Of a DNA stretch of 64,000 bases, positions 20,345-61,800 are shown in pieces; positions within the stretch are counted from its first letter, which is position 1, and the number at the start of each line of letters is the position of its first letter. The DNA comes from Ginglymostoma cirratum (lineage: Eukaryota). A model generated the notes under the pieces. The model did no database searches, had not been told where the DNA came from, and saw only the letters and a list, made by a program, of their open reading frames with translations. The stretch is from NCBI GenBank assembly GCA_024137785.1, contig JAHRHZ010000012.1:66652324-66716323 (forward strand), read 5' to 3'. The translations under genes and the position numbers were made by a program.

Positions 20345-21199
20345 ACAAGCGTGGGGCTGGATGAACACAGCAGGTCAAGCAGCATCATAGGAGCAGGAAA
20401 ACTTGACGTTTCGGGCCTAGACCCTTCATCAGAAATGGGGGAGGGGAGATTTTGAAGCTTGTGAAATCCACATTGATACCATTGGGCTGCAGGGTTCCCA
20501 GGCTGAATATGATTTGCTGTTCCTGCAGCCTTCGGGTGGCATCACTGTGGCATTGTAGGAGGCCCAGGATGGACATGTCATCTGAGGAATGGGAGGCGGA
20601 GTTGAAATGGTTCGCGAACTGAGCGCAGGTGTTCTGCAAAGCGGTCCTCAAGCCTCCGCTTGGTTTCCCCGATGTAGAGGAAGCCACAACGGGTACAGCA
20701 GTTGCAGTACACCACACTGGCAGATGTGCAGGTGAACATCTGCCTGATGTGGAAAGTCTTCTTGGGGCCTGGGATTGGGGTGAGGGAGGAGGTGTGGGGG
20801 CAGGTGTAGCACTTCCTGCGGTTGCAGGGAAAAGTGCCGGGTGTGGTGGGGCTGGAGGGGAGTGAACATCATCCCGCCCCCTTGACCTGTCCGTCCTCCC
20901 TGGACTGACCTATCTCCTCCCTACCCCCCCTACCTACACTCACCTTTACTGGCTCCATCCCCGCCTCTTTGACTTGTCTGCCTCCTCTCCACCTATCCTC
21001 TCCTCTATCCATCCTCTATCCGCCTCCCCCACTCTCCCTATTTATTTTAGAACCCTCTTCCCCTCCCCCATTTCTGATGAAGGGTCTAGGCCTGAAACAG
21101 CAAGTTTTCCTGCTCCTATGATGCTGCTTGGCCTGCTGTGTTCATCCAGCCCCACACCTTGTTATCTCGGATTCTCCAGCATCTGCAGTACCTTTTATT
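20345..21199. mobile_element. Foldback Penelope-like insertion (family A, young) with 11-bp TSD
   Basis: Minus-strand pLTR/GIY-YIG segment (with internal deletions) joined to a plus-strand pLTR. CCTTTATGTTA occurs at 20334-20344 and 21200-21210. Confidence 0.85.
20405..20432 (-). ncRNA. Minimal hammerhead ribozyme motif in Penelope pLTR
   Basis: Minus strand reads CTGATGA-AGGGTCTAGGCCC-GAAA-CGTC. It has the CUGANGA and GAAA core boxes, a GGG(U)/(G)CCC helix II, a palindromic ACGU helix III and a GUC cleavage triplet. Confidence 0.7.
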
Positions 21200-21349
21200 C
21201 CTTTATGTTAGTGAGATTAACTTTGCGGGGTCAACTGGGCAGGTGTGCCTTTATCACGCCTGATTCTGATGCCTAAGTCAGTGCAGATAATTCATCAACT
21301 TTATCACTATTTGACATTTTCATAACAACCATATACAACTAGTTTGTTA

Positions 21350-21620
21350 GTGCAGTTACAAGACAGGCACATTGATGTAGTTCTGGAGTCACATGTAGGT
21401 CAGGTGGGCTAATGACTGCAGATTTCATTCCTTAAATGTCATGAGTGAACTAGAGAGCTTTTAGATATATATCTGGTAAATTCATAAAGATGACCTCGTA
21501 TTAGCTTGTTATTCCAAATGTATTTAATTAACTGAAGTTGATGTCTCCAGCTGTTGTGGTGGAATTTGAATTCATATTTCTGGATGTTTATTACTTCAGG
21601 TCTCGCGATTGTTGGTCCAG
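21350..21620 (-). mobile_element. Old SINE-like repeat
   Basis: GGAGTCACATGTAGGTCAGG..GCAGATTTCATTCCTTAAA..GTGGAATTTGAATTC resembles a common degenerate shark SINE in reverse orientation. Confidence 0.4.
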
Positions 21621-23139
21621 TATATATAAAGTCACTACCCACACCTATATATGGGGATATGTGCATGGAAAACTGTCAGATCAGTGAACCACTTCACTGG
21701 TTCCTGGGATCAGTTGATGGGGTAGAATACGTTGGCAGGTATATGGTGCTGTCTCTAAAATATGGGGTTCTCTCAAAGATTAAGATACAAGGGGTCTAAA
21801 ACCTGAAAACCAACCTGCCTCAAATCAATAGCTTTAATAGAGGCTGGACAAGGGGCTGGCAATTAGTCCACTTACAGGAGTCTGGTTGGTCATTTGGGAA
21901 TTACAAATGATGCACCGTGTTTTTATCGTAAGTCATTCTGTTTTTATCCACAATTTCCCAGACCACGGGAAACTCACCAGCTGAAAGAAGGCAGGAGAAG
22001 TTGAACCTATGCATTTTACTGCACTGCTCATGGGGTCAGAAGAAGCAAGAATGTGTCTTCCAGGCTCAACCAGGCATCCAATAGATACCTTCACTTCAGT
22101 GAGCCATCAGCTTTCCCTGACAACGTCCAACACTCTAAATAATCTTCATACTCCTCCCAAATTCCAAGGGTGGGCAAAGGAACCATGTCCCCACCTTCCC
22201 TCACAAAGCTCACTCCCACCACAGCCTGCAAACTGGCTTCCTGGCCAAGAGGCTTCAACCCTGTCCATCAGGCCTACTTTTTGAGTAGTAACATTACACA
22301 AAGCAATACTGCAGTTAAGTTCTGCATGGCACTGAGGGGGCTCAGTACTCTGGGTTTCTGAACCTCGTAACAGCTTCCCTCCTTAGCACCCATCTCCACA
22401 TTAAAATTCAGGCCATGACCTCAGAGATATTTCTTTCTATTTTCATTTCATAAATAAGGCACCTCACATTTAAAGGCAGATAGAGGGGGCAAAAAAATCT
22501 GAGAAACAGTAAAATCCGTTCAAGCATTTTTGGAGCAGTGTTCTGTACAAGACTGAAAAAAAACTTGTTAATAAAAGGTTTCCCCACTATTACAGGCTGC
22601 TTTTATGCAGGGGCACAAACGGAGGACGTTTCATGTTATTTCCTGATGTGAACTAATGCTTGTTTGCTACCAAATTATAGAGATTTTAGTGTAAACTAGA
22701 GTTTCTTTCTGAGAGCTCACGAGCATGGCTCGTGGGACAACACAAGGAAATTCAGTCCAGTAAACTATGAAATAACTCAAATGTAAAGACCCTGTCTTTT
22801 TATTTCTCTGTATTTTTAATTCAGTGCTAAAATGAGCAAATAATTGTTTTAAAACGAAGAATTGCTGGAGGATTGTTTTATATTTTGTGTATTCAAATAA
22901 CCTCGCACTCATTGTAAGTACTGGTTACACAGCTGTCTGTTCGAACCAGGGTTAAAGCGTGGCTGCAGGCAAACTGGAGCCAAAGAATTATACACAAATA
23001 GAGCTTTGGTTAGCAACAAATAGATGACTGGTTTGTGGACAAGTCATCAGCTATTGATGATAAATGCCTTCTGTTTGCCAACAACTGTGATTGGTTCTTA
23101 GTTAGTGGAATAGTTTGGTAACAGGATGCAGAAAAGCCA

Positions 23140-26100
23140 AGATAACAAGGTGTAGAGCTGGATGAACACAGCAGGCCAAGCAGCATCAGAGGAGCAGGAA
23201 AGCTGACGTTTCGGGCCTAGATCTTTCTTCAGAAATGGGGGAGGGGAAGGGGATTCTGAAATAAATAGGGAGAGAGGGGGAGGCAGATAGAAGATGGATA
23301 GGGGAGAAGATAGGTGGAGAGGAGACAGATAGGTCAAAGAGGCGAGGATGGAGCCAGTAAAGGTGAGTGTAGGTGGGGAGTTAGGGAGGGGATAGGTCAG
23401 TCCAGGGAGGATGGACAGGTCAAGGGGGCGGGATGAGGCTAGTACGTAGGAGATGGGAGTGGGGCTTGGAGGTAGGAGGAGGGGATAGGTGGGAGGAAGG
23501 ACAGGTTAGGTAGGCAGGGACAAGCTGGGCTGCTTTTGGGATGTGGTAGGGGGAGGAGAGATTTTGAAGCTTGTGAAGTCCACATTGATACCATTGGGCT
23601 GCAGGGTTCCTAAGCGGAATATGAGGTGCTGTTCCTGCAACCTTCGGGTGGCATCGTTGTGGCACTGCAGGAGGCCCAGGATGGACATGTTGTCTGAGGA
23701 ATGGGAGCGGGAGTTGAAATGGTTCGCGACTGCGAGATGCAGTTGTTTAGTGCGAACCGAGCGTAGGTGTTCCGCAAAGGGGTCCCCAAGCTTCCGCTTG
23801 GTTTCCCCAATATAGAGGAGGCCACAATGGGAACAGCAGACACAGTACACCACATTAGCAGATGTGCAGGCGAACAACTGCTTGATGTGGAAAGTCTTCT
23901 TGGGGCCTGGGATGGGGGTGAGGGGGGAGGTGTAGGGGCAGGCGTAGCACTTCCTGCAGTTGCAGGGAAAAGTGCCGGGTGTGGTGGGGTTGGAGGGGAG
24001 TGTGGAGCGGACAAGGGAGTCCCGGAGAGAATGGTCCCGCCGGAAAGCAGATAAGGGTGGGGAGGGAAAAATGTCTTTGGTGGTGGGGTCGGATTGCAGA
24101 TGGCGGAAGTGTCGGAAGATGATGTGTTGGATCCGGAGGTTGGTGGGGTGGTAGGTAAGGACGAGGGCGATTCTGTTTTGGTTGTTATCGCGGGGACGGG
24201 GTGTGAGGGATGAGTTGCGGGAAATGCAGGAGACACGGTCGAGGGCGTTCTCGACCACTGGGAGAGGGGCGGGGAGGTTGCAGTCCTCGAAAAACTAGGA
24301 CATCTGAGATATACGGGAGTGGAATGCCTCATCCTGGGAGCAGATGCGGCAGAGGTGAAGGAATTGGGAATAGGGGATGGCATTTTTGCAGGAAGGTGGG
24401 TGGGAGGAGGTGTATTCTCGGTAGCTGTGGAAGTCGGTAAGCTTGAAATGGATATCGGTTTTCAGGTGGTTGCCAAAGATGGAAAGAGAGAGGTCCAGGA
24501 AGGAGACGGAGTTATCAGAGATGGTCCAGGGGAACTTAAGGTTGGGGTGGAGGGTGTTGAATTGGATGAACTGTTCGAGCTCCGCGTGGGAGCACGAGGC
24601 GGCGCCGATACAGTCATCAATGTAGCGGAGGAAGAGGTGGGGTTTAGGGCCAGTGTAGCTACGGAAGAGGGATTGTTCCACGTAACCTACAAAGAGGCAG
24701 GCATAGCTTGGGCCCATGCAGGTACCCATGGCCACTCCCTGTCTCTGTAGGAAGTGGGAGGAATTGAAAGAGAAGTTGTTGAGGGTGAGGACGAGTTCGG
24801 CGAAGGGTGAGAGCGTCAGTGGAGGGGGACTGGTCGGGCCTGCGGGACAGGAAGAAGCGGAGGGCCTTTAGGCCATCTGCGTGGGGAATGCAGGTGTATA
24901 GGGACTGGACGTCCATGGTAAAGATGAGGTGTTGGGGACCAGTGAATTGGAAGTTTTGGAGGAGGTGGAGGGCGTCAGTGGTGTCACGGACGTAGGTAGG
25001 GAGTTCCTGGACCAAGGGGGAGAAAATGGAGTCGAGATAGGTGGAGATAAGTTCGCTGGGGCAGGAGCAGGCGGAAACAATGGGTCGACCAGGGCAGAGA
25101 TAAAAGGTACTGCAGATGCTGGAGAATCCGAGATAACAAGCATGGGGCTGGATGAACACAGCAGGTCAAGCAGCATCATAGGAGCAGGAAAACTTGACGT
25201 TTTGGGCCTAAACCCTTCATCAGAAATGGGGGAGGGGAAGAGGGTTCTGAAGTAAATAGGGAGAGAGGGGGAGGCGGATAGAGGATGGATAGAGGAGAGG
25301 ATAGGTGGAGAGGAGGCAGACAAGTCGAAGAGGCGGGGATGGAGCCAGTAAAGGTGAGTGTAGGTAGGGGGGTAGGGAAGAGATAGGTCAGTCCAGGGAG
25401 GACGGACAGGTCAAGGGGGCGGGATGATGTTAGTAGAAGGGCAGTCAGGTTTGTCGATTTTGGGAAGGAGATAGAAGCAGGCGGTGCGGGGTTGGGGAAC
25501 GATGATTTTGGATGCTGTGGGTGGGAGGTCACCTGAAATGATGAGGTTGTGGATGGTTTGGGAGATGATGGTTTGGTTGTCGGGGGTGGGGTCATGATCA
25601 AGGGGGCGGTAGGAGGTGGTGTCGGTGAGTTGGCGCCTGGCCTCGGCGCTGTAGAGGTCAGTGCGCCATACTACAACTGTGCTCCCTTGTCCGCGGGTTT
25701 TATGGTGAGGTTGGGATTGGAGCAGAGGGAGCAGAGGGCTGCACATTCTGTGAGGGAGAGGCTGGAGTGAGTAAGGGGGTGGAGAGGTTGAGGCGATTGA
25801 TGTCACGACGGCAGTTGGAGATGAAGAGGTCGAGGGAGGGTAGGAGGCCTTGGGGTGGTGTCCAGGAGGAGGGGATGTGTTGGAGGCAGAAGGGGTCAAT
25901 AGGGGGAGGGTTAGGCTCACGATTGAAGAAGTAAGCGCGGAGGCAGAGGCGATGGCGGTGAAAAAACTGTTCAACATCCAAGCGTGAGCGGTATTTGTTG
26001 ATGTGTGGGTGGTGGGGGACAAAGGTGAGCCCTTTACTGAGGGATGACTGTTCGTCCTCAGTGAGGGGGAGGTCGGGGGGGATGGTGAAGACTTGGCAGG

Positions 26101-26790
26101 GCTGGGTGCTATTGTCTCCTCTAGAGCTGCTGGCTGTGGAGGCCGTGGGTGGAGCGATGTCGGCGTTGGCAGTGGGCGAGTTGTGTCAGCGTCGGCGGTG
26201 GGCGGAGCAGGGTAGGCTGCGGCAGCAGCGGTGTCTGCAGGTGCATCCTCAGTGTCTGTGGTGTTGCCCTCCTCGGAAATGGAGGCAGTGGCATCAGCAG
26301 TGGTGTCGATGGCATTCGCTGTCCCGGAAGTGGTGTACCCGGCGGCAGCGGATGTGACGTCATCCGTGGGTGCTCCGAAAGTGGCCTCATGGCTGATGGC
26401 AGCGGGCACATTGTGGCGAAGGTCCTGGGTAGGGTTGGGGATTTGGGGGGTGGAGGAGGCCCGTTTTGGGTGGCAGGCACCAGTAAGTTTACTGTACTTA
26501 CGGTTTTTAGTGTCCAATAAAGCTGAGTAGAATTGAGAGTTCAGGTTGTGGATCCTACAAAGAATAAAAAACAGGAGAGGTCCTTGCAGGTCTGGAAGAG
26601 GGAGGCTCTGAGCTGGGGTAGGCTTGACTGTAGCGCCAGGAGATGCCGGTGCATTGCTGTGAGTGCGTGTTTCAGGAGTCGCAGTGAGAAACGTTTTTGA
26701 AGGATCTCAATGTTCTGAATGTAGACATTGTCGCAGTTGGGGCCAAATTGGGAAGGCCTAAATGTGGACTGTAGTCCATTGGGGATGATA
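23140..26790 (-). mobile_element. Long Penelope-like retroelement (RT + GIY-YIG), frameshifted and 5'-truncated
   Basis: RT motifs IKPADKG-like, MDVQSLYTCIPH, AMGTCMGPSYACLF and FLRYIDDC are present. The GIY-YIG region reads CTSANVVYCVCCSHCGLLYIGETKR..EH..VANHFN..EQHLIFRLGTLQPNGIN. The 3' pLTR is at 23140-23560. Confidence 0.92.
25098..25437 (-). mobile_element. Solo Penelope pLTR nested in the RT ORF of the 23140-26790 element
   Basis: Near-identical to 56028-56357. Flanked by AGGGCAG at 25091-25097 and 25438-25444, and it interrupts the KPDCP|GRPIVS motif. Confidence 0.85.
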
Positions 26791-27551
26791 AGCCATCAGA
26801 GCCCAACTAGATCATGAGCTCTCTACAGTAAAAGCCACTTTAAGTCTGAAGAAAACCAGGTTATTTTCCCTCCAGCAATTGCTGTAAGCTGTGATTTTAA
26901 AAGTAGTATATCCGAGAACAATTTTAGTAAGTGAACCAGCTATCTTGTGCCTTTTTGCAAATAAATGAAACCATCAGAAGGAGGACCAAGAAGCAGAGTT
27001 CTGATTAACACAAGAATCATCTCAGGAACCACTGAACTTCATTCCCAGGCTTTCCTTCCATCTATAACAAACTTCTTTTGTCTGTGCGTGTAAGAAAAAT
27101 AAAGCTTTAATGGGTAGAGTTACATGCCAACAGTTCAATACTGTTTACCAGTAGCTAAAGTCTAATTACACCAAACTTTGTTTTATTCAGCGCCTTATCA
27201 AATGGCACTCTTGATAAACCATCAAAAATTATATACCTGAAATACCGCAATCTACCACAATGTCCGAACATTTATGCTGTAAATAAAGTATAACACCAAC
27301 GTGTATATCCCCTATATTATGTTTCCATTACTTGCGTTTTTATATTGATTTTGAGAAGGTGTGCAAATGTTTTTACATGGACACTTCAGGGATGTGGATG
27401 TCTCAAAGCTTCGCTTGGTCAGGGTTTACTGCAGTTATGCTTACCTCAATTATCTGGAATATTTGGTCAACTGGCACACTGCTGGTCCCATACGTGGAAG
27501 TTAATAAAACGTTTGCCGTACTTTTAATAAATCGTCATCTTTATTAAATTT

Positions 27552-27853
27552 CATAGAATCCCTACATTGTGGAAACAGGCCCCTCGGCCCAACAAGTCCA
27601 CACTGACCCTCACAGCCTCCCACCCAGACCCATCACCCTATAACCCACATTATCTAGACGTCCCTGAACACTATGGGCAATTTAGCATGGCCAACCCACC
27701 TACCCTGCACATTGTTGGACTGTGGGAGGAAACCCACGTAGACATGGGGAGAATGTGCAAACTCCACACAGACAGTCGCCCAAGGGTGGAATCAAACCCA
27801 GGTCCCTGGCGCTATGAGGTAGCAGTGCTAACCACTGAGCCAACATGCCGCCC
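27552..27853 (-). mobile_element. HE1-like V-SINE
   Basis: Same structure as 10070-10394 (CAAACTCCACACAGAC..GTGCTAACCACTGAGCCAACATGCCGCCC). Confidence 0.9.
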
Positions 27854-27996
27854 AAATACAGAAACCTTATCTGTGTTTTGTGTCAACCTGGGTTCAAACT
27901 TTAAAATTTTTGCGATGATTCCAAGTAGAGTGTGGTTTAATTTCTACCACCCTACCCCACTGAGGCACATCAGAAAGGTGAATGTTTTGTCTATTA

Positions 27997-28202
27997 AAAC
28001 AAAGAACTGCAGATAGTGGAAATATTAAACAGAAAAAAAATCGTTAGAGAAACTCAGCAGGTCTGGCAGCGTCTGTAGAGAGAAAACAGAGTCAATGTTT
28101 CGAGCTCAGTGACCTTTCTGCAGGACTGCAGACCCTTCTTTGAAAGCGTCACCGGACTTGAAACATTAATTTGGTTTTCTCTCCACAGATGCTGCCAGAC
28201 CA
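27997..28202. mobile_element. Short foldback Penelope pLTR element (family C)
   Basis: The left arm CAGGTCTGGCAGCGTCTGTAGAGAGAAAAC is inverted relative to the right arm TTTTCTCTCCACAGATGCTGCCAGACC. Confidence 0.7.
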
Positions 28203-28359: not shown

Positions 28360-29725
28360 GAATTAGGAGACTCTTCAACTCATCTCCACCATTCATTAAA
28401 ATCATGGCTGATCAGACTATCCCCTTTTCTTGATTGGCCCCCATAACATTGGGCTCTCTATGTGGATTTAAAAAACAAAATCTGCTTCCACTGTTCACTA
28501 GAGTATAAATTCTAAAGATCTGTGACCCTCAGAAAGAAGAAATTCCTCATCACTTTCTTGTTCAGAAACTTTGCCCCTTAGTTTGAGATTACCTCGGAGG
28601 GGAAACATCCTGTGAACAGGTATCAAGTTCCCTCAGAATATTACATGCTTTAATAATGTTTCTTATTCTCAAATATAGGCTCAGACTCCAGAGTTTCCTC
28701 AATCAACCTCATTAACCTTCTCTGAAAACAACTCCAATATAAGTATTTCCCTTCTTAAATAATGAGTTCAAAGCTGTAAGTGACAGTTTACATCTGGTCT
28801 CACCAAAGTCCTGCATATTTGTTAAAAGACTTTGCTACTTTTAGTTACTACTCACCTTCCAATAAAGAAATTGCCTCCATTTGCCTAATTACGGGCTATA
28901 GCTGCATGCTAAATTTTCATGATTCTTATACATGGGCATCCAGATCCATTTGTACCACACCATTCTGCAATTTCTCTTCATTTACAATAAAAATTCTTCG
29001 CATCTTCTCCTTCCCATGAAGTGTATAACCTCAAATTATCTCACAATGTACTCAATCTGCCTCCATTTTGCCCACTTACTTAATCTATCCACATATCGCT
29101 GCAGAGTTTTTTTTTGTCTTCCTCACATCTTGCTTTCCTACCAGTCTTTGTATAGTCAGTAGGTTTGGTAAAAATACAGTAAATTTCCTTTATCTAAGTC
29201 ATTAATGTAGATTTGTAACTAACTGAGACCCCAGCACCAATTACTGTGGCTCTCCACAAGTTAGTTTGTCAACCAGAAAATGTCTTATTTAATCCAATGC
29301 TGTTTTCTGTCAGAAACAAAAAAAGAAATTGCTGGAAAAGCACAGCAGGTCTAGCAGAATCTACAGAGAGAAATTAAAGTTAACGTTTCGGGTCGAGTGA
29401 GGAAGGGTCACACGTCCCGAAATGCTAACTCTGATTTCTGTCCACAGATTCTGCCAGACATACTGAGCTTTTCCAACAATGTCTGTTTTTGTTTCGGATT
29501 TCCAGCGTCCACAATAATTTTAGTTTCTGTTTCTGGTCAGTTAGCCAGTCCTTTTTGGTGATTTTTACCTGAATTATCACCACCATCATGAGGTATGGTC
29601 TTGCATAGCAAACTTTTATACAACACTTTATTCAATACATTTTGAAAATCCAAACATAATTTCCCTTTAAACACCGTACGTTCTCAAAGAACATTTATAA
29701 ACTTGTCAAACATGATTTCCATTTC
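28360..29725 (-). mobile_element. Degenerate CR1 LINE 3' region interrupted by a family-C foldback element (29310-29530)
   Basis: CR1 tail motifs AAGAAATTCCTC and GGAAACATCC, plus TTGTCAAACATGATTTCC (QHGF..LTN on the minus strand). Confidence 0.6.
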
Positions 29726-30103: not shown

Positions 30104-30929
30104 TGTACCAAATGTTGGAGTTTCTTCAAAACATTGCTTAGTACCCCAATTTATTTGATTTTCAAACCAAGGTTGACAGAAAGCATGGGCCAGGTTTCCA
30201 TACTAAACAAGAATTATTTATTATACATAATTAGACTATATCTAGAGGTAAACAGATAAAATTCACAAACATGTAATACTACTAACTAAAACTCTAATTC
30301 CCNNNNNNNNNNNNNNNNNNNNNNNNNNNNNNNNNNNNNNNNNNNNNNNNNNNNNNNNNNNNNNNNNNNNNNNNNNNNNNNNNNNNNNNNNNNNNNNNNN
30401 NNNNNNNNNNNNNNNNNNNNNNNNNNNNNNNNNNNNNNNNNNNNNNNNNNNNNNNNNNNNNNNNNNNNNNNNNNNNNNNNNNNNNNNNNNNNNNNNNACT
30501 AGAATATTGTTTGAGCTCAGAAAAAAAACATGGAAAGTCAGTTCAGTGGTCTTCGCTTTCTGATTCCTGATGCCGGAGGTTTCAGTTGACTTTTTCTGGA
30601 AGCTTCCAATGATTTGTAACAGTATTGCTCAATTCACTTGGAAAATGTTGCTGATTCTAATTCAAAGGCCATTGCTCACAGTTATTGCTGTGGGAAAGGT
30701 TTTCTTCATGCTTAAACCGATTTTTTATACATTGCAGAGAACAGGGAGCATCTGCTGGGGAGAACAACAGCACACCCTTTTCTCTCTATCTGTGTTTTTG
30801 CAAACTATTTCCAGGTCCAATCTTTTTAGTTAGCGAGGACAAATCAGCGTTACTTGTAAACAGCTTCTTGGCTCCTAATAGTCTGCATATTGCAGGAACA
30901 CAGACACAAAAAACAAATGGTTCATGACA
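30104..30929 (-). mobile_element. Possible solo LTR spanning an assembly gap
   Basis: TG...CA-type ends (TGTACC../..CATGACA) and a minus-strand AATAAA near 30215. No convincing TSD. Confidence 0.3.
30303..30497. other. Assembly gap (N run)
   Basis: Run of Ns. Confidence 1.
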
Positions 30930-31352: not shown

Positions 31353-31383
31353 AATAGAAAAAAAGGACAGATAAATTACTTAC

Positions 31384-31542
31384 TCTGTTGCATAGCTCAT
31401 CATTGTCAGTGTAGATGGCGACTTGTCGAATTGCTTCGCCACCTTCATTTAGGAAGTAAGTCATCAAGACAAGAATGTCATAACCAAGCCTTCCAGTAAA
31501 TACTTTTAAATCGTCAACAATATTTGGACGAGATAGAAAGGC
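31384..31542 (-). CDS. PRUNE2: PRUNE2 exon encoding part of the DHHA2 domain (159 bp, phase 0-0)
   Basis: Splice sites are tttttgtgttgcag|GCC...AACAGA|gtaagt. The exon encodes AFLSRPNIVDDLKVFTGRLGYDILVLMTYFLNEGGEAIRQVAIYTDNDELCNR and joins in frame to ICNTLEECQ of the giant exon, matching Prune-family DHHA2. Confidence 0.93.
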
Positions 31543-34440: not shown

Positions 34441-35054
34441 ACAACATATCGGACGCTGCAATGATGATGTTACCCAGCACAGTAACGAAATGTCTGCGGA
34501 ACAACAAACCAACTTGGCGAGCCAACCAACCTCAACACTCTATTGATTCTTCCTCTTGGCGACTTCTTCCAATCTGACTATCCCAATCTGTTCAGCTGTA
34601 CCGTGTTACACTAATCACTTCAGTACTCTTTCAGGATTCAAGCCCCCAACCTAACTAGAACACTGCTTCATCTGTCCTATCATGTGTACTGTCAACATGT
34701 TGTCCATTACTAGCAGGAAAAATCAGTATCATTATTATTACATAAGGGATCAAGGTCTATAAGATACCATTGTTAAGAATGCCTTAAGCACCACTCACTG
34801 AGACGAAATCAAACAGACTTAGGAGAACAATTTAGGATCTTGGAGGAATAAGGCTTGCATTTAGTCCTCCTCATAGTTTCTGTAACAATGTCTGTCACAT
34901 CAGTATAACTTATACTTAGTTGCTAACATGCAATAGGCCACATCTTGTTTCAGGTAAGAGCACCCTCTCATTCGATGAGCAAATGATTTTTCTATTCAAC
35001 AACAGACTTTATAGAAAGATGGTGGTGGCAGCAAACCATGGAAAGCAACAGTGC

Positions 35055-35680
35055 AACAAAAAACAGAAATTGCTGAAAAAGCTCAGCAAGTCTGGCAGCA
35101 TCTGTGAAGAGAAATCAGAGTTAACATTTTGGGTTTGGTCACCCTTCCTCAGAACTGATGGTAACTAGTTTACACGCAGAAGATAGGGTGGGGGTGGGAG
35201 GTGGTAAGGAGTAAATGATAGGTGGGGATAGAGCCCAACGGGAGAGAAGAACAGTTGGACAGACAAAGGAGTGGATAACAATCTGGCTAGGAGGGTGAAT
35301 GGCTGTTAATGGAGACTATTACTGGCTAACAATAGTTGGTGTGTAATGGCAAACTATGTGATAACAAGGCCTTGTGTGTCGGGGAGGGGCCTAAGGTATG
35401 GGAGAGTTCAGGCCCTAAAATTATTGAACTCGATATTGACTCCAGAGGACTGCAGAGTCCCCAAGTGGAAAATGAGGTGTTGTTCTTCTTCCAGCTTGTG
35501 CTGAGCTTCGCTAGAACACTGCAGCAAGCCTGAGACAGAGATATTGGCCAGGGAGTGTGATGGTGTGTTAAAGTGGCGGGCAACTGGAAGCTCAGGGTCA
35601 TTATTGCAGGCAGAATGCAGATTGTTCTGCAAAGCAGTGCAAGAGCAAGCAATAGTGGAGACAGCCTCATACAATAACAT
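35055..35680 (-). mobile_element. Penelope-like element 3' end (family C): GIY-YIG tail plus pLTR
   Basis: Encodes PELPVARHFNTPSHSLANISVSGLLQC..EEQHLIFHLGTLQSSGVNIEF. The pLTR contains CTGAGGAAGGGTGACCAAACCCAAAATG. Confidence 0.8.
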
Positions 35681-36019
35681 GGCCAACAGTAAGAATTGCT
35701 CATACAACAATTATAGTGGCCAGGAATAGTCGACAGTCACGAAGTTGCAATGTTCATTGTCAAATGCACAAAAAAACTTCTCGTCTGTTGGCTTCAGTGG
35801 GAAATTGCACTTCTTGCCATTGAGGACAGAGTGTCAGGGCAAATCGCGAAATTTCCTAATGTGTCGCATTTCTGGTCAAACCATGCACCTGGCAATGTCA
35901 TCAACTGGCTTCCCAGGATATTTCTATTATAGCTGAGACACTATGAATGTATGATGAACATACCAAAGGTGCAGAATCACTTATCACAACAGGGCACTGC
36001 ATTCACATTCTGATTAAAC

Positions 36020-38850: not shown

Positions 38851-39399
38851 GAGATAGCAGGAACTGCAGATGCTGGAGAATCTGAGATAACAAGGNNNNN
38901 NNNNNNNNNNNNNNNNNNNNNNNNNNNNNNNNNNNNNNNNNNNNNNNNNNNNNNNNNNNNNNNNNNNNNNNNNNNNNNNNNNNNNNNNNNNNNNNNNNNN
39001 NNNNNNNNNNNNNNNNNNNNNNNNNNNNNNNNNNNNNNNNNNNNNNNNNNNNNNNNNNNNNNNNNNNNNNNNNNNNNNNNNNNNNNNNNNNNNNNNNNNN
39101 NNNNNNNNNNNNNNNNNNNNNNNNNNNNNNNNNNNNNNNNNNNNNNNNNNNNNNNNNNNNNNNNNNNNNNNNNNNNNNNNNNNNNNNNNNNNNNNNNNNN
39201 NNNNNNNNNNNNNNNNNNNNNNNNNNNNNNNNNNNNNNNNNNNNNNNNNNNNNNNNNNNNNNNNNNNNNNNNNNNNNNNNNNNNNNNNNNNNNNNGACCC
39301 TTCTTCTGAAGAAGGGTCTAGGCCCGAAACGTCAGCCTTCCTGCTCCTCTGATGCTGCTTGGCCTGCTGTGTTCATCCAGCTCCACACCTTGTTATCTC
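38851..39399. mobile_element. Family-A foldback Penelope element with 13-bp TSD, spanning an assembly gap (38896-39295)
   Basis: The left end GAGATAGCAGGAACTGCAGATGCTGGAGAATCTGAGATAACAAGG is inverted to the right end CCTTGTTATCTC. AAGGGAAAATTCA occurs at 38838-38850 and 39400-39412. Confidence 0.85.
39306..39333 (+). ncRNA. Minimal hammerhead ribozyme motif
   Basis: CTGAAGA-AGGGTCTAGGCCC-GAAA-CGTC. Confidence 0.6.
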
Positions 39400-48730: not shown

Positions 48731-48831
48731 TTATATATAACACAGTATGGAGCTGGAGGAACACAGCAGGCCAGGCAGCATCAGAGGAGCAAGAAAGTTG
48801 ACGTTTCACGTCAGGACCCTTTTTCAGAAAC
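48731..48831 (-). mobile_element. Family-A pLTR remnant with 13-bp TSD
   Basis: CACATTAAAGATA at 48718-48730 and 48832-48844 flanks GGAGCTGGAGGAACACAGCAGGCC..GACCCTTTTTCAGAAA. Confidence 0.8.
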
Positions 48832-53400: not shown

Positions 53401-56126
53401 TACCCTTACAAATACTGTATTTAAGGCGGTAGATAAGCAATACCTTGAGGAGTGTTTTGAAAAGTGGATGGTGATGGAAGTGGGATGGAAAGGGCAAGAT
53501 TACAAAATAATTGTAATTTTCACATGAGTTTTAGCTAAAGTCCCCAGTCAATTCACTGGTAGCTGCTGAAATCTAATTGGCCACTAGATGCTGCACAAGA
53601 GCAATGCATGGTGATTTTAAATCCATTTTTTAATATCTGTAATGACCCTCACCAAGATGAATAAACAGATTAAACAAATCACAGGTGAAAGGTTATACAA
53701 GTCTTTCACATATTGGACACACACACTACGATACTACATTGGTTATCATCTCGCAAACAAATTCTGAAAGAAATAAAATGCAAGATCTTAGGTTCTTAAG
53801 AGTTTCACATTATCTGATAGTTGTGTAGGACAAAGAAAACTGACTATTAGCCCTTAATTTGATTCTTTGATAATTAAGAGACAGCTTTAAGTAAAAGGTG
53901 CCAAATACAAACTTTTGATTTTCAATACTAAATTCAGGAGATCTTCATTTTATTTATTTAGGTAATCTGCCAAACAAACTTTCCCTGCAATTGTACAACA
54001 CAGTAAACTTTTCATTTATTTTGTGTATCTTCAAGATTCTGGGGAACAACCTACTCGCTCATTATAAAATGGAATAGAATTTATCATTCTCTATCCAAGT
54101 AATCACTTGTTACTTGTTATTAGAATGTATTTTTCCTCTAGCTAGTAAAGGATCTGCTGGAATATGTAATAACTTACTTGGATACGTGCATTCATTATCA
54201 TTATCGCATACTCACAAGTCAAGCTTAGAATGTTCTAATGAGCATCCATGCCTTTCCAAATTGGGAATTGGGTCAATCCCGCAAGTCAAGTACAAGCTAT
54301 CCAGGTATTACTGGCCGTTCAGTCAGGGCACAGCAGGGACATCAGTCTAGGGACTAGGCCATGCTCAGTTAGGGCTGTCCTGCCAATTCTGTCTGGGAAC
54401 TGGACTATGGTCAGTTTTAGGGTTTGGTCAGTAATGGTCATAGGGCAGTCTGTGGAATCCTGGGGAAGGCAAGTATCTCATGTTATATCGGATCACTGAC
54501 GGAATGGTGACAGTGACAACAATAGAGGGCAAGTGAAGATAGTAATGTGGGACCTCAGTGATTACAGGTGGACTAGAAATTCCAGAAACGAGGGATTCAA
54601 ACAGGCCGCAGTAACTCAACCCTCTAAAGGGGAGTGTAAGGCCAAAAGCGACATGGGAATTTCCAAAGTCGTGGGCTCTGAGAATAATTTGGGAACATAA
54701 ACAGCTTTATAAAGTGGCTCGATGGAAAACTCTGAAGGGGCAGAAAGTCATAGGAACCACACAGACACCAACACAAAAAAGGGACATGAAGTATTTGGGA
54801 CAGACCAGGAAAGAGATATTCTTGCATCACCAGTGAAACCCGCAAGTCACTCACACCAAAACAAAACTGCAACTTTGTCGCATCAGATCGAAAGCAACTG
54901 TGCAATTACTGCACAATAAAGGCTGACACCCCTTGTAAAATGGGTGAAATCAGATAATGAATTATCTTCAGAGCAAAACAAGACATTTAGAATTTGAGGC
55001 CTAGCTAGTGGCAATTACAGTAATCATATCTGGCTTCAACTTGCACTGAATCAGCAGGCCTTTCATTGCCACTACTGCACGTTAAGAATTATGGCCTCAA
55101 GGAATCATGACCATTAGATTGCGTATATTAATTGGCTCCTTGTCACGTCAACCAATTAAATGTAATCAGATAAAGTCATTTAAAAGAGGCTTCTGAAATT
55201 TACATTTCAAACACTTTCCATAGCAAGCACTGAAAGGCAATGTTTCACAGCTATCACATTTTGTACAACGAACTGTAAGAATACAAGGACAGATCCTGTG
55301 GTATTCACTAACCTGGCTTGGCACTAAGGTTAGGTAGCTTTAGTTTCATTAAGATATTACGAACCAGTGTTGTGCAGCAAGGCCTCTCATGTCAGGCAGC
55401 AGTTTGCTAGGAATTCTGAGCAGTCTCCGTTTTGATCCTTCGACGCTTGCTAACATTGCACTCTTTCAGGGTGCACGTGGATTACTAAATTGCCCTGAAA
55501 TGCTTCAGCAACCTTTTGGACAGCAGTGAACCTGCAAAAGCAGTGCTTTGTGTACGTTTCCTCAGCAGCCCACTGCACTATGGAGGTAGAGTAGACATAG
55601 GAGCTGCCCATTGTACCTCTCCCAACTTGAAAGGCAGTGTGCTCTCTTGAAAAACAAATAGAATGAGCCCTCCCCTCCAGAAATGTGTGAAATTATCACT
55701 GTTACTATGTTGTTACTCACAAGGAGGTGTGTAAGTGTGGAATGATGTGTGCAGGCCAGGCCTAGCACAATCCCTACACAGTGCATTCAGCCTGAGTTAC
55801 ACTACTGGAGTGCTATGTCTTGGCTGTAGCAATTAACGTCCCTGATGTCTGAGGTGGTCAGCAGGCAAAGAGTTGGTTGCTTGTAGGAGATTAGGAATGC
55901 TTGGCCATTACAACTTCTTTCATCCTTGGGATGTCTGAAGATGCTGCTTACATCACTCATCCAGCAGATATATTAACAGTGCAAGTGAAGATTTATTTAC
56001 AACATGGAAGGTTATTTACAATGATGAGAGATAAAAGGTACTGCAGATGCTGGAGAATCCGAGATAACAAGCATGGGGCTGGATGAACACAGCAGGTCAA
56101 GCAGCATCATAGGAGCAGGAAAACTT

Positions 56127-56154
56127 GACGTTTCGGGCCTAAACCCTTCATCAG
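56127..56154 (-). ncRNA. Minimal hammerhead ribozyme motif (inverted pLTR)
   Basis: Minus strand reads ATTT-CTGATGA-AGGGTTTAGGCCC-GAAA-CGTC-AAGT. Confidence 0.7.
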
Positions 56155-58433
56155 AAATGGGGGAGGGGAAGAGGGTTCTGAAATAAATAGGGAGAGAGGG
56201 GGAGGCGGATAGAGGAGAGGATAGGTGGAGAGGAGGCAGACAAGTCGAAGAGGCGGGGATGGAGCCAGTAAAGGTGAGTGTAGGTAGGGGTGTAAGGAAG
56301 AGATAGGTCAGTCCAGGGAGGACGGACAGGTCAAGGGGGCGGGATGATGTTAGTAGATAGGAGATGGGGGTGTGGCTTGAGGTGAGGGGAAAAACAGGTT
56401 AGGGAGGTGGAGATGAGCTGGGCTGACGCATAACTCCGCCCACAGCCAACGCCGACAACGCTCCGCCCACTGCCTCCACAGCCAGCAGCTCCAGAGGAGA
56501 CAGCAACACTGAGCCCTGCCGAGTCTTCACCATCCCCCCAGACCTCCCCCTTACTGAGGACGAACGGTCAGTCCTCAGTAAAGGGCTCACCTTTGTCCCC
56601 CTCCACCCACATGTCAACGAATACCGCTCACGCTTGGATATTGAGCAGTTTTTCTGCCGCCTCCACCTCCATGCTTACTTCTCCAACCGCGAATCTAACC
56701 CTTCCTCTACTGACCCCTTCTCCCGCCTCCGACACAAGCCCTCCTCCTGGACACCACCCCAAGGCCTCCTACCCTCCCTTGACCTCTTCATCTCCAACTG
56801 CCGTCGTGACATCAATCGCCTCAACCTCTCTACCCCTCTCAAACACTCCAACCTCTCCCCCGCAGAATGTGCAGCCCTCCACTCCCTCCGCTCCAATCCC
56901 AACCTCACCATAAAACCCGCGGACAAGGAAGGGGCAGTCGTAGTATGGCGCACTGACCTCTACATTGCTGAGGCCAGGCGCCAACTCTCTGACACCTCCT
57001 CCTACCGCCCCCTAGATCATGACCCCACCCCTGAGCACCAAACCATCATCTCCCAAACCATCCACAACCTCATCACCTCAGGTGACCTCCCACCCACCGC
57101 CTCCAACCTCATCGTTCCCCAACCCCGCACCGCCCGCTTCTTCTCCCCAAAATCCACAAACCTGAATGCCCTGGTCGACCCATTGTCTCTGCCTGCTCCT
57201 GCCCCACCGAACTCATCTCCACCTACCTAGACTCCATTTTCACCCCCTTGGTCCAGGAACTCCCTACCTATGTCCATGACACTACCCACGCCCTCCACCT
57301 CCACCTCCTCCAGAACTTCCAATTTCCCGGTCCCCAACACCTCATTTTTACTATGGATGGCCAGTCCCTATACACCTGCATTCCCCACGCAGATGGCCTA
57401 AAGGCCCTCCGGTTCTTCCTGTCCCGCAGAACGGACCAATCCCCCTCCACCGACACCCTCATCCGCCTAGCCGAACTCGTCCTCACCCTCAACAACTTTT
57501 CTTTCAATTCCTCCCACTTCCTACAGACAAAGGGGGTGGCCATGGGTACCCGCATGGGCCCAAGCTATGCCTGCCTCTTTGTAGGTTACGTGGAACAATC
57601 CCTCTTCCGTACCTACACTGGCCCTAAACCCCACCTCTTCCTCCGTTACATTGATGACTGCATCGGCGCCGCCACGTGCTCCCACGAGGAGCTCGAACAG
57701 TTCATCCAATTCACCAACACCTTCCACCGCAACCTGAAGTTCACCTGGACCATCTCTAACACTTCTCTCTCCTTCCTGGACCTCTCTGTCTCCATCTCGG
57801 GCAACCACCTAGAGACAGATGTCCATTTCAAGCACACTGACTCCCACAGCTACCTGGAATACACCTCCTCCCACCCACCCTCCTGCAAAAATGCCATCCC
57901 CTATTCCCAATTCCTTCGCCTCCGCCGCATCTGCTCCCAGGATGAGACATTCCACTCCCGCACATCTCAAATGTCCTCATTCTTCAAGGACCGCAACTTC
58001 CCCCCCACAGTGGCCGCGAACGCCCTCGACCGTGTCTCCCGCATTTCCCGGAACACATCCCTCACGCCCCGCCGCCGCAACAATAACCAAAAAAAAATCC
58101 CCCTCGTCCTCACATACCACCCCACCAACCTCCGGATCCAACGCATCATCCTCCGACACTTCCGCCATCTGCAATCAGACCCCACCATCAAAGACATTTT
58201 TCCCTCCCCACCCTTGTCTGCCTTCCGGAGGGACCACTCTCTCCGCGACTCCCTTGTCCGCTCCACACTCCCCTCCAGCCCCACCACACCCGGCACTTTT
58301 CCCTGTAACCGCAGGAAGTGCTACACCTGCCCCCACACCTCCTCCCTCACCCCAATCCCAGGCCCCAAGAAGACTTTCCACATCAGGCAGATGTTCACCT
58401 GCACATCTGCCAATGTGGTATACTGCATCCGCT

Positions 58434-58533
58434 NNNNNNNNNNNNNNNNNNNNNNNNNNNNNNNNNNNNNNNNNNNNNNNNNNNNNNNNNNNNNNNNNNN
58501 NNNNNNNNNNNNNNNNNNNNNNNNNNNNNNNNN
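58434..58533. other. Assembly gap (100 N) inside the PLE endonuclease region
   Basis: Run of Ns. Confidence 1.
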
Positions 58534-58836
58534 CCCCCAACCGCATCCCAAAACCAGCCCAGCTCATCTCCACCTCCCTAACCTGTTTTTCCTCTCACCA
58601 CAAGCCACACCCCCATCTCCTATCTACTAACATCATCCCGCCCCCTTGACCTGAGCGTCCTCCCTGGACTGACCTATCTCTTCCTTACACCCCTACCTAC
58701 ACTCACCTTTACTGGCTCCATCCCCGCCTCTTCGACTTGTCTGCCTCCTCTCCACCTATCCTCTCCTCTATCCATCCTCTATCCGCCTCCCCCTCTCTCC
58801 CTATTTATTTCAGAACCCTCTTCCCCTCCCCCATTT

Positions 58837-58864
58837 CTGATGAAGGGTTTAGGCCCGAAACGTC
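58837..58864 (+). ncRNA. Minimal hammerhead ribozyme motif (3' pLTR)
   Basis: ATTT-CTGATGA-AGGGTTTAGGCCC-GAAA-CGTC-AAGT. The flanking AUUU/AAGU can form a short helix I. Confidence 0.7.
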
Positions 58865-61800
58865 AAGTTTTCCTGCTCCTATGATGCTGCTTGACCTGCT
58901 GTGTTCATCCAGCCCCATGCTTGTTACCTCTATTTACAATGATGTTTCATTGGTGCCACCAATGTGCCCTCAAGAAATATTCTTCTTCCTCTGCCTCCCT
59001 TGTTATCAAGGTGCAATTCTGTCTTGCAGCCTAGGTGGAAGGATCCTGCTCTACTCCTGTAGGCTTTGACCATTAACTCCTGGTGCTTTTAGGTCAAGAG
59101 GGTCAAGGCATTTTTGAATGTGTTCAACCCAGAAGTGGGCTCAACCCCCTTGGTTTGAACTGCTGGAGGTTCTGGGATCAAATGAGGGGGAGGATGCACT
59201 ACTGGAGCATCCTGAGCAGAAGCTTCAGAGAGTTCTCTGTGTGGTTCTCTCTCTCTAGCGATGCCTACTGACATGACCCTGTCTATCTGAGATAAAGGAG
59301 CACTGGGAGTCTGCTCAAGGTTCCCTCAATCCTCTTTTGTCTTGCCATTGATGTTAAATACCAGTGTTAAAAGCAATGGAATGCAGTTGCACGCAAAATC
59401 TAGCAGATAGAGTGCGCCAGCCATGGCTTTAGATGGCAGTCCCTAATCTGTCCTTGGAGGCAGCATGGGATGGGAACCATTTCTGGACTCCTCCATTCTT
59501 TGAGACAACCATTTCTTAACTTGCAGCACCTGAAACAGTGAGCAATCTGGGACTTTCAACATGGTGCCAGCAACATGAATGCTAGTCGGTCGCGATCGGG
59601 GAAATCATTTCCCCATCTTGTACCACATAATTCCCCGAGAAAGATGGTCAACAATCTGGTTGCATAATGCATGAGGTCATGAGCAGGAAATTGAGAGAAA
59701 AAAGTTGCTGTGAATCATGGCAGACAAGGCTCCAGTAATTTCACACAAGACACTAGAACCATAAAGAGTAAAATGCTGCTCTTTGTGGATACATGCCTCC
59801 ACCAGTGGTTAAACTGGAAAGGAGCTTTTTATATCTTATTAAAATCTTTGTCCCATCATCATTTTTAATAGAGAGTTCAATGTAAGTTTGGCTGATGCTT
59901 GAATATATTTCTAATAATGTGACAAATGAGGCAGACAAGAAGCCATGATTTTGTTCACAACAGCTGGAGAACAGATGGGAGCTCTGCATTGCTTCCATGA
60001 CAGAGGTCTTGTCAGATCGAAGTGAGTCCCTGGAAAGTGCAAACCTTCCACAGGATTTAGAATCCCAGTGCAGAAATTCCACCCCGAGAGCAGTCTGCCA
60101 ATTAGGAGCTAGCATTGGAGGATGGTGTTTGCAGCTGGTAATGCTTCCAGGTTCAGCACAACTATCTCCAATAGATCCCAGAACATGGAAACAGTGTGGC
60201 TGAAGGGGAGGTGGATTTGTGCAAGCTGGTTGGAGGCAAGGACATCTTTGCTTCTGTATATAGATGTAGCTTAAGTTTCACTGTTTAATAAACTTCATCC
60301 ATCCATTCATCCAAGTATTATTGATATAAGGGAATAAAATACTGTTGTATTGGAACACCAGACCCTTTTAAACATTTGTTTACTGTGTTTCTTTGGGTAG
60401 ACGCTGTAGAAATTACCAACATCCTCCTTTCAGTCCTTCCCAACTAGCGCAAAATCTATTGCATACACCATTACTAGAAAATGACCAAAGCATATGCAAG
60501 AAACATCATTTACCAGGCCATAATTTAATCAAGGGAAGAATTCAATACACTGACCACAGAGTTCGAGACAATAGATTTCAGGGTCTTGCCAAAAATAACT
60601 AAATTTCAGTTTACTGGTAAATGCAATTATCAAATGCGTCTCTGATTCAATTTGATGAGTTCAATGGAGCAACAGTATATTCAATATCCTTGAAAAAGAA
60701 CAGGACTACTTTAGTAATAATAACATCTGAGATTGAGTCCAAAAGAACAAATTCAAAACCTGTAAAAGCACAAACGCTATTTAACTAAAAGAAGTATGAT
60801 ATTTACTTTAATGTAGGTAATGTAAATTCATAGCTGAGGATGCAGTCAGCATAATTTTTGAAAAAATGCTTTTATTTTTAACCAACTTCCATAAGTTCCA
60901 CTTAAATGTTGATTATGTGCATCAGCCCGTGCTAGATCCTTCTACAAGAAACACATTAGATGGTGCTACAGTGTCATAAAAGAAGGCAGAAAACAAAATT
61001 CACTCAAAGGGTTGCTGCTATTAGTAAAGTCACAGCTATAATATCCTAAACCCTACTTTGGCATTCCTTTCACATGATCTATGAATGCTCAAAATCCTGG
61101 CTCATCGATATAATGAGCTTAGAGAGTTTGAAAAATGCATTCCATGAGCACTATTATTTTGTTTGCTGGAATCTAAATTAAGCCAGAAAGGCAGAAGAAT
61201 GTGTGTGCAGTCATGCATATTTGTGTGGACAGTCCTCATCATTAAGGTGAATGAATAATGAATCAGATTTCGTTTCTTTAAAGAAGAACAGATATAAACT
61301 TGGACTTCAATTTACTCTAATACATTGTAGATTAACGACTTGTTTAATATTTAAATGTATTATGACATTGCTGAGCTGTCAAAGTCTCGATCTCATATAT
61401 TCAAGGTTTCATGCAAAACGACAATCGCTCTCTTTACCAAGGATGTTCAATGCCTTTAGATATACCATTTTACTTGAGCCTTCAAGGATTCAGACAATTG
61501 CTTGTGAGGCCTATTGCTATCAGGTATAAGGTAAGCTACACATTACAACTGAATAGTTTATGTATCAATTATAGTTGGACAATAATGCCAAACACTGTAA
61601 CACTAATATTTTAGTGCTACTTCATTTTTAAGTGCTATAAGCACAGAATCGATTCAGTATTTACCTTAGGCAACACTAACTTTTTAGAGGATCTTCAGTG
61701 CTGTCACAAACCCCAAATGCTACATTTCCAACTCATTTTTCCTCTGGAAGGCAATTTGCTTAAATAAATGTAGAAATATAGGTACAAAGATCCCAGTCTT

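Follow-up and report, generated by a model that had tools for sequence, protein, structure and literature searches.

The introns of shark PRUNE2 very probably harbor minimal type-I hammerheads (min-HHRs) that sit in the pLTRs of at least three families of Penelope-like retroelements (PLEs), are decaying, and probably leave the host pre-mRNA uncut. The initial annotation of this 64-kb stretch of DNA (the window) had made the same identification, with a palindromic helix III, and the motif anatomy, the RT/GIY-YIG frames, and the TSDs bear it out. Searches with shark PRUNE2 proteins (tblastn) identified PRUNE2, on the minus strand, as the host gene of all copies, and every hammerhead or PLE copy in the window is intronic. 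These copies are likely harmless passengers of the PRUNE2 introns rather than cutters of host RNA. The features are collected in Table 1, where the label exon 7 follows the exon numbering of the human gene by analogy.

Table 1. PLE copies, hammerheads, and PRUNE2 exons in the window
Feature	Position	Strand	Details
Family C copy, host-antisense	700..830	+	full pattern 717-745, AGCU palindrome
Mini copy, hammerhead and short tail	2846..2939	+	5' end at C3; 10-bp TSD; core decayed
Family A3 pLTR	5818..6165	+	decayed hammerhead 6073
PRUNE2 exon, 117 nt (exon 9)	6853..6969	-	tblastn
Older head-to-head, family A3	7602..8781	both	decayed cores 7730(-), 8688(+); 9-bp TSD
PRUNE2 giant exon, 6065 nt (exon 8)	11144..17208	-	tblastn; run X5 contig leaves window exactly at 17208
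Head-to-head PLE, family A1	20345..21199	both	11-bp TSD 20334-20344 / 21200-21210; minus arm with GIY-YIG end, pLTR carrying an internal deletion, and short tail; plus arm 20865-21199 with long tail
Intact minimal hammerhead, host-sense	20405..20432	-	predicted cut at 20405/20404
Decayed hammerhead, helix III palindrome lost	21074..21101	+	complement is the antisense arm in pre-mRNA
Near full-length broken PLE	23131..26800	-	aa 44-886 of 889-aa relative; several frameshifts; hammerhead 23232, helix II broken
Younger solo pLTR nested in 23131..26800 element	25098..25437	-	7-bp TSD; hammerhead 25223, G12 to A at CpG
Family B mini/fold-back units	27999-28201, 29310-29504, 31215-31353, 33314-33500, 46484-46715		none with intact core and palindrome
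PRUNE2 exon, 159 nt (exon 7)	31384..31542	-	tblastn, shark PRUNE2 proteins; AG/GT ends; in frame with next exons
Family B PLE end, GIY-YIG C-terminus and pLTR	35052..35710	-	decayed hammerhead 35152
Family C fold-back units	62555..62745, 36030-36212		
Head-to-head, family A2, mostly N (38896-39295)	38851..39399	both	core 39306-39333(+) at fold-back junction; 13-bp TSD
Mini copy	48731..48831	-	5' end 4 nt upstream of C3; 13-bp TSD; G8 to A
Head-to-head PLE, family A1	56027..58930	both	14-bp TSD 56013-56026 / 58931-58944; inverted pLTR with long tail, 56027-56425 (-); 5'-truncated RT-linker-GIY-YIG body and its pLTR with short tail, 56427-58930 (+); frameshift near 57140; N gap 58434-58533
Intact minimal hammerhead, host-sense	56127..56154	-	
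Intact minimal hammerhead, host-antisense	58837..58864	+	complement masks 56154 copy in predicted fold
Mini copy	62093..62220	-	5' end within CUGA box; 11-bp TSD; G12 to A

Hammerhead anatomy and the elements that carry it

A descriptor combining the core boxes, a helix II of at least 3 bp, and a palindromic A15.1-U16.1 matched the window five times (717+, 39306+, 58837+, 20432-, and 56154-), whereas 200 block-wise dinucleotide-type shuffles together gave seven matches. When a helix I of at least 4 bp was also required, four matches remained in the window, against none in the 200 shuffles. The core boxes CUGANGA, GAAA, and UH are complete in all five. Other traits of min-HHRs are also present: an unpaired base after A9, a G10.1-C11.1 pair (G-U in 717), and a palindromic 15.1-16.1 segment without a loop, which reads ACGU in families A and B and AGCU in family C. 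Helix I has 4-5 bp in families A1, B, and C, and 2 bp followed by a mismatch in A2/A3 and 39306.

The four motifs of the form CUGANGA-helix II-GAAACGUC that had been annotated as intact were found again at the same coordinates and on the same strands. The label does not suit 39306+: there, a head-to-head insertion's fold-back junction forms the 5' side, and helix I is only 2 bp long. The reverse applies to 717+, previously called decayed: it satisfies the whole descriptor, although its palindrome reads AGCU instead of ACGU; helix I has 4 bp, and helix II is closed by a G-U pair. The earlier list was incomplete, as we count 28 arms in 18 units, or ~19% of the window. The arms are distributed without strand bias (15 minus versus 13 plus); some copies are indeed sense to the PRUNE2 pre-mRNA, and only 20432 and 56154 are both sense and intact.

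Helix II differences among three pLTR families had been offered as covariation-like support. Two of the variants, GGGTCTAGGCCC and GGGTCACCGGACCC, are one stem with different loops, but families A and B do differ from family C by double-sided helix II changes, and real double-sided changes also occur in helix I and in the helix III palindrome. In a hand-anchored alignment of related sequences, taken without a shuffle control, 134 of 150 cells pair, and double-sided changes occur at each of the four pairs of helix I, at three pairs of helix II, and at the inner pair of helix III. The Rfam hammerhead covariance models, which the initial annotation had proposed as a check, gave no match in the window at E<=5 or in two 121-nt stretches at E<=10. 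Rfam matches to MIR821 and MIR7696 fell on family C fold-backs, far below the gathering scores, and were rejected.

Domain searches matched RVT_1 (E=1.9e-6) as well as GIY-YIG (E=0.0046), neither of which reaches the Pfam cut-offs. Protein relatives of at least 787 aa at E<=1e-20 numbered 488; among the 120 listed, all contain PF28514 and PF26215, most also PF00078, and many PF01541. The CX2-5CxxC linker is found in both long copies (CNRRKCYTC and CNCRKCYAC) and in 113 of the 120 relatives listed. RT followed by a C-terminal GIY-YIG is seen in family A and the EN end only in family B, in broken frames; no link of family C to RT or EN was seen in the 64-kb window. The EN region has a Cys cluster and HFNxxxH, candidate parts of the CCHH motif of the Neptune clade.

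The hallmarks of EN+ PLEs are present: a pLTR with an optional tail, an adjacent inverted copy, and a short TSD. TSDs of 7-14 bp flank 8 of 10 family-A units; families B and C have no equally clear ones. As a control, a match of at least 10 bp was found in 3 of 400 random pairs. Each of the four family-A head-to-head units has one long-tail and one short-tail arm. Self-comparison of the window revealed single and inverted units only and no head-to-tail tandem hammerhead units, and a scan of metagenome contigs with the tail pattern gave 0 matches.

Decay of the copies

The hammerhead structure was presumably selected during element replication, with the ribozyme acting in dimers held by the ACGU/AGCU palindrome, probably assisted by protein. 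In the PRUNE2 introns, the core is not kept better than the tail, and lack of extra core conservation was one of the two outcomes that the initial annotation had named as refuting its reading: in 13 family-A copies of the window, 9 of 141 core positions (6.4%) and 44 of 648 tail positions (6.8%) are changed (Fisher P=1.0), and singleton changes amount to 2.1% in the core and 2.0% in the tail. In the same copies, CpG columns are changed in 11/52 cases versus 77/958 for the others (P=0.004), and the catalytic G12 is changed in 4 of 13. Outside CpG, the core is changed at 3.9% versus 6.8% for the tail, a difference that is not significant (P=0.32) but leans toward conservation. After insertion, copies would be disabled by CpG deamination at C11.1-G12 and C15.2-G16.2.

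Four family-A sense arms have no antisense arm next to them (23232, 25223, 48827, and 62224); all are damaged, and purging could be the cause. Of the unpaired antisense copies, 717 is intact, but damage is also seen in 2846 and 6073. The 20345-21199 insertion is absent from a relative's contig (run X9 record 10), ~4-5% diverged. Thus, hallmarks of domestication are lacking: the orthologous site of 20432 is empty in the relative, and the core has no extra conservation. Predicted masking by head-to-head geometry, together with CpG decay that removes G12 and the palindrome, may be a route of host tolerance.

Proposed cleavage of the host pre-mRNA

The initial annotation suggested that two minus-strand copies could pair as a dimer and cut the PRUNE2 pre-mRNA. 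This is not borne out for the intact sense pair: 20432 and 56154 are 35.7 kb apart in separate introns, with exon 7 between them, and both belong to head-to-head insertions in which a near-perfect antisense arm is transcribed before the sense arm. Head-to-head insertion would place an antisense arm before the sense hammerhead on either strand, and this arm is predicted to mask the hammerhead: the predicted antisense duplexes reach -205 and -795 kcal/mol (the hammerhead stretch alone, approximately -96), and in local folds both intact sense cores are predicted to be fully paired. The predicted active dimer (-6.3 kcal/mol) falls ~25 kcal/mol short, in stability, of the best cofold that these two strands can form (-31.3 kcal/mol). 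These are nearest-neighbor energies, in which core tertiary contacts and proteins are ignored. The masking of 20432 is uncertain because a 5.2-kb fold (20300-25500) pairs the antisense arm with 25223 and leaves 20432 free, with helix II formed.

Dimerization of two host-sense hammerheads of one PRUNE2 pre-mRNA and cutting of the intron is best considered with 20432 as core and 25223 as substrate, and even so we regard it as highly improbable. The 25223 copy lies 4.8 kb upstream of 20432 in the same intron and has an intact GUC strand; 4-bp helices I and the ACGU helix could form between the two (-6.4 kcal/mol), and 20432 is unmasked in the 5.2-kb fold. However, in that very fold 25223 is itself masked by the 334-nt antisense arm (-689 kcal/mol), and an alternative cofold of the pair reaches -30.3 kcal/mol. 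For 20432 and its remaining neighbor, 23232, helix I comes to 2 bp and the dimer energy to +6.6; 56154 is in another intron and predicted to be masked. Published rates are also low: cleavage by metazoan min-HHRs is weak even in dimeric form (PMC4209133). The anole PLE ribozyme does not cleave without protein (PMC11167929), and a slowly cutting intronic hammerhead reportedly did not block splicing (as cited in PMC2995048). If true, the cleavage model would mean a transposon-borne ribozyme cutting host pre-mRNA.

A contig from the same species (run X5) is identical to the window over 16200-17208 and departs at the exon 8 acceptor; beyond 17208 it has 1059 letters, compared with 951 nt of upstream PRUNE2 coding sequence. 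Judged by departure point and length only, it is thus likely a spliced PRUNE2 mRNA, which also speaks against cutting of the intron. Neither the raw poly(A) run X10 nor run X11 had reads on the PRUNE2 exon, though reads could also have been removed by a filter. Loose ends occur at 20404 (X9) and 21106 (X10, X11, X5, and X9), which is at or close to the cut site, but were rejected as cut-site ends, as their consensus runs on as subfamily sequence across a 1-nt indel.

Cutting in trans, with intronic copies dimerizing with other nuclear family-A RNAs and element protein helping when a PLE is active, is very unlikely. In its favor, 58,597 of 12.9 million run X10 poly(A) records map to the compared stretch, nearly all on repeats, and 88% continue into unlike sequence; the anole ribozyme is protein-assisted (PMC11167929). 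On the other hand, no molecule-end pile-ups are listed in four runs, a weak argument given fragmented libraries and a threshold of one-fifth of the depth, and no anole RNA-seq reads ended at the cut site (PMC11167929).

The copies might instead act on the host as double-stranded RNA, with ~2.3 kb of inverted sequence around the 159-nt in-frame exon 7 promoting skipping, back-splicing, or A-to-I editing; this is compatible with inert hammerheads, although we consider it unlikely. Inverted pairs are formed by 23835-25096 and 57167-58433 (1273 bp, 89%), 25438-26190 and 56422-57172 (761 bp, 88%), and 25130-25437 and 58623-58930 (98%), but their arms are more than 30 kb apart. Change places in run X10 (A>G 28, T>C 27, C>T 21, and G>A 21) show no one-sided excess, in mixed copies and a stretch without exon 7.

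Known systems and the 5' ends of the copies

The intronic copies, likely inert, belong to a published kind, the min-HHRs of metazoan PLE pLTRs (Cervera and de la Peña 2014, PMC4209133). The likeness covers the CUGANGA/GAAA-UH boxes, an unpaired base between 9 and 10.1, G10.1-C11.1, a loopless palindromic 15.2-16.2, a short helix I, several families per genome, and mostly solitary copies or opposite-strand pairs. In contrast, helix II has 4-5 bp in the shark versus 7-8 bp in Schistosoma, and sharks are not named among the hosts in the sections consulted (PMC4209133); the helix I mismatch sets families A2/A3 apart. Sharks thus join the vertebrates with PLE hammerhead remnants in introns.

RT, the CX2-5CxxC linker, and GIY-YIG at the C-terminal end are shared with EN+ Neptune/Nematis PLEs (Craig et al. 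2021, PMC8557442; Arkhipova et al. 2013, PMC3846280), and so are an inverted 5'-truncated neighbor copy, a one-arm tail extension, and short TSDs; the linker occurs in Nematis besides Neptune (PMC8557442). Unlike these, many shark copies consist of hammerhead and tail only (~95-130 nt). According to Frangieh et al. (2024, PMC11167929), the Poseidon PLE of the green anole likewise has two alternative 3' ends one tail apart and inserted copies that extend past the cut site, which would fit a template of uncut RNA, whereas the Penelope/Poseidon clade lacks the linker Zn finger that the shark element has. Non-LTR retrozymes (bioRxiv 10.64898/2026.07.22.740005), whose survey includes one chondrichthyan, are also short non-coding PLE-derived hammerhead units. 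Unlike them, the shark units are single or head-to-head and form no head-to-tail arrays. HH9 and HH10 are ultraconserved intronic hammerheads of amniotes. The shark copies resemble them in being intronic and host-sense, but one intact shark copy is absent in a close relative, and the cores decay at the background rate.

As a separate observation, 12 of 23 arms begin between -6 and +4 nt from C3 and none at the cut site, and an initiator-like motif adjoins. A tentative reading, possible rather than probable, is that transcription starts at this initiator, 4 nt upstream of CUGA, so that the hammerhead comes first in the RNA and its cut would remove the cap; RT run-off from internal tail sites of uncut RNA would mass-produce 95-130-nt hammerhead-plus-tail units and head-to-head fold-backs of these, self-masking on either strand. 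The function of hammerheads in EN+ PLEs has been called unclear (PMC8557442), and a start site at the hammerhead's 5' edge, if true, would favor decapping or translational control over template processing.

The ends may instead have clustered upstream of CUGA through RT stalling or self-priming at a structured edge, which we rate at somewhat below an even chance. Palindromes at inverted junctions of rotifer PLEs were taken as self-priming (PMC3846280), the region is pyrimidine-rich, with YYANWYY at 1.3-1.6% of positions, and some of the joints seen across the genome fall at +33 to +37, just beyond the cut site. However, single-arm mini copies with clean TSDs (2846, 48827, and 62224) have the same end point without a fold-back, and the A of the initiator-like motif is placed at -4 across families A and B and the 717 copy.

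Hammerhead motifs and their conservation

The initial annotation held that Penelope-like elements (PLEs) here carry hammerhead ribozymes, and the four motifs it named are present where it placed them. A motif descriptor matched five sites in the window, compared with seven in total in 200 shuffles, and four window sites versus none in the shuffles had a 4-bp helix I; the search with Rfam hammerhead models that it proposed gave no matching model. The motif at 39306 had been called intact, but the 5' strand of its helix I is lost to a fold-back junction, and the copy at 717, listed as decayed, is in fact complete. The window holds 28 hammerhead-bearing arms (single copies or halves of head-to-head units; 13, 10 and 5 from families A, B and C), of which the minus strand carries 15 and the plus strand 13. 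In the 15 arms that retain upstream sequence, which we anchored by hand, 134 of 150 cells are base-paired, a count from related copies without a shuffle control. Helix I shows double-sided changes at all four of its pairs and helix II at three; in helix III they affect the inner pair, turning ACGU into AGCU, still a palindrome. Chance may account for single changes where copies have decayed; even so, the preserved palindrome is as expected of a dimer mode, and the pattern speaks for selection while the element replicated. The motifs are real, rightly named and of a kind already known: they match the minimal hammerheads described by Cervera & de la Peña (PMC4209133), which are reported to number thousands per vertebrate genome, opposite-strand pairs among them, and to be inactive as monomers and of low activity as dimers. 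In subfamily A1, the helix II stretch at 20413-20424 is self-complementary across 12 nt, so that a non-catalytic two-copy duplex is predicted as a rival to the active dimer.

Among 13 family-A copies, a small sample, the core is no more conserved than the tail in the terminal repeat (pLTR): off-majority cells are 9/141 in the core versus 44/648 in the non-CpG tail (P=1.0), and singletons 3/141 and 13/648. This parity is the sequence half of what the initial annotation had said would speak against it. The catalytic core G (G12) is altered in 4 of the 13 copies; without it, the core count is 5/128, below the tail but not significantly so (P=0.32). CpG columns of family A changed in 11/52 versus 77/958 elsewhere (P=0.004).

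Elements that carry the motifs

Family A is joined to a PLE reading frame at 56427-58432 (plus) and 23131-26800 (minus). Both frames are frameshifted and align with relatives of 889-924 aa across the reverse transcriptase (RT), linker and GIY-YIG regions; a CX2-5CxxC linker occurs in both long copies and in 113 of 120 relatives among the matches listed. By this linker, family A resembles Neptune and Nematis, in which Craig et al. (PMC8557442) describe it, rather than Penelope/Poseidon, in which they do not. A GIY-YIG end at 35411-35710 precedes a family B hammerhead pLTR; family C, with no coding link in the window, is assigned by its hammerhead alone. Target site duplications (TSDs) of 7-14 bp flank 8 of 10 family-A units (chance level, at least 10 bp in 3/400 trials and at least 7 bp in 43/400); of the other two, one has a 7-bp match off the unit ends and one has no match. 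A TSD search of eight family B and C units yielded nothing convincing. A young solo pLTR (25098-25437; TSD 7 bp) interrupts the RT region of an older copy from its own family.

All four head-to-head family-A units pair one long-tail with one short-tail arm, in agreement with two RT start sites in PMC11167929; the layout itself is known for PLEs (PMC3846280, PMC8557442). Head-to-head insertions contain two of the three assembly gaps, and that at 38896-39295 may hide a further sense hammerhead. Family A pLTRs carry a polypyrimidine tract plus CAG, resembling a 3' splice site, ~23 nt upstream of C3, the first core-box base; PLE pLTRs can contain introns. Family C fold-backs (62554-62748 and 36087-36171), which gave spurious Rfam microRNA matches (MIR821, MIR7696), could be Dicer or ADAR substrates. 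Among other repeats, the LINE-like fragments resemble CR1/L2-type LINE ends and a three-copy family is SINE-like; a Pfam scan of three LINE-like frames gave no match.

Coordinates of features in the window
Feature	Position	Strand	Remark
Head-to-head family-A unit	7602-8781
Head-to-head family-A unit	20345-21199
Head-to-head family-A unit	38851-39399
Head-to-head family-A unit	56027-58930
Polypyrimidine tract + CAG	58808-58814 and equivalents	+	family A pLTRs
Assembly gaps	30303-30497, 38896-39295, 58434-58533
LINE-like repeats	1973-2512, 33041-33281, 40420-40749, 43461-43643, 44800-45120, 52143-52329
Three-copy repeat family	3631-3937, 10073-10396, 27551-27856
PRUNE2 exon	31542-31384	minus	AG/GT ends
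PRUNE2 giant exon	17208-11144	minus	AG/GT ends
PRUNE2 exon	6969-6853	minus	AG/GT ends
Clustered 5' ends / fold-back junctions of short PLE copies	2846, 48831, 62220, 39306, 28123-28138, 29397, 31344, 33398-33406, 46575-46589

PRUNE2 and the proposed cleavage of its pre-mRNA

Three PRUNE2 exons, presumably exons 7-9 by human gene numbering, join in a reading frame without a stop. The giant exon corresponds to a minus-strand frame of 2023 codons (11140-17211) with 93.5% identity to the whale shark and 89.9% to the zebra shark protein (99% and 98% over the first 200 residues of the frame), identities that mark the source as a carpet shark. Residues 1 to ~250 of PRUNE2 had no match in the window (tblastn, four shark proteins); thus, any exons upstream of these three are beyond 64000, and every repeat is intronic. 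Inverted PLE sequence of ~2.3 kb (88-98%; 23835-26190 and 56422-58930) lies on both sides of a 159-nt in-frame exon and is a candidate cause of exon skipping, back-splicing or editing.

The proposal that two sense copies dimerize and cleave this pre-mRNA is not supported. The copies at 20432 and 56154 alone combine an intact motif with host-sense orientation; they are 35.7 kb apart, with exon 7 between them, and each forms one half of a head-to-head unit, in which the antisense arm is the first to be transcribed on either strand. Predicted energies of the arm duplexes are -205 and -795 kcal/mol; the folds predicted for 20300-21250 and 55950-59000 leave no part of either core unpaired. The computed energy of the cleavage-competent dimer is -6.3 kcal/mol, whereas two monomers come to -18.6 and the best cofold to -31.3; these values exclude tertiary contacts and proteins. 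In the predicted 20300-25500 fold, the antisense arm pairs with the 25223 copy and leaves 20432 free, which is a result against simple masking; with the remaining neighbor, 23232, as dimer partner, helix I has 2 bp and the energy is +6.6 kcal/mol. Cleavage, should it occur, need not stop splicing: in studies cited in PMC2995048, splicing persisted when a slower hammerhead cut introns and was blocked by a fast HDV ribozyme. We consider hammerhead cleavage of the PRUNE2 pre-mRNA very unlikely.

Reads were compared over 16200-22600 at 90% likeness in 4 of 16 listed sequencing runs. In a relative (run X9), one contig passes directly from 20333 to 21200; this empty site makes the 20432 copy younger than that split. 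An X5 contig is identical across 16200-17208, departs from the window at the exon acceptor and continues for 1059 letters (coding sequence upstream of the giant exon in P0001 is 951 nt); unique depth over the intron is close to zero in X5, and the contig is likely a spliced mRNA, judging from sequence. The poly(A) run X10 placed 58,597 reads on the stretch, nearly all on repeats from other loci, with no site of many molecule ends among those listed (16200-22600; weak evidence) and no exon reads, so it allows no locus-specific inference.

5' ends at the hammerhead edge

Counted from C3, 12 of the 23 arms in families A and B start at -6 to +4, 10 far upstream and one at +18; none starts at the cut site (+28). 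Among the 15 joints listed, with 685 more beyond them, the minus arm begins at -7 to +6 in 8; 20 X9 contigs contain the 20435-to-21071 joint, and a loose end at 20435 occurs in 26 contigs of X5. Three joints at +36/+37 and one junction at +33, among those listed, may stem from cut RNA, from palindrome deletion or from breaks introduced by the aligner. A literature search over titles and abstract openings, outside subscription papers and supplementary figures, gave nothing on shark PLE hammerheads or on this 5'-end clustering.

In 11 of 15 copies, and in a 12th on anchor correction, the A of the initiator-like consensus YYANWYY falls at -4 (the copies are not independent; background frequency, 1.3% per position). 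If transcription starts beside C3, the mini copies would be accounted for as run-off products of uncut RNA. An internal promoter is described for Drosophila Penelope (PMC2377424), and Inr-like motifs have been noted in pLTRs (PMC3846280).
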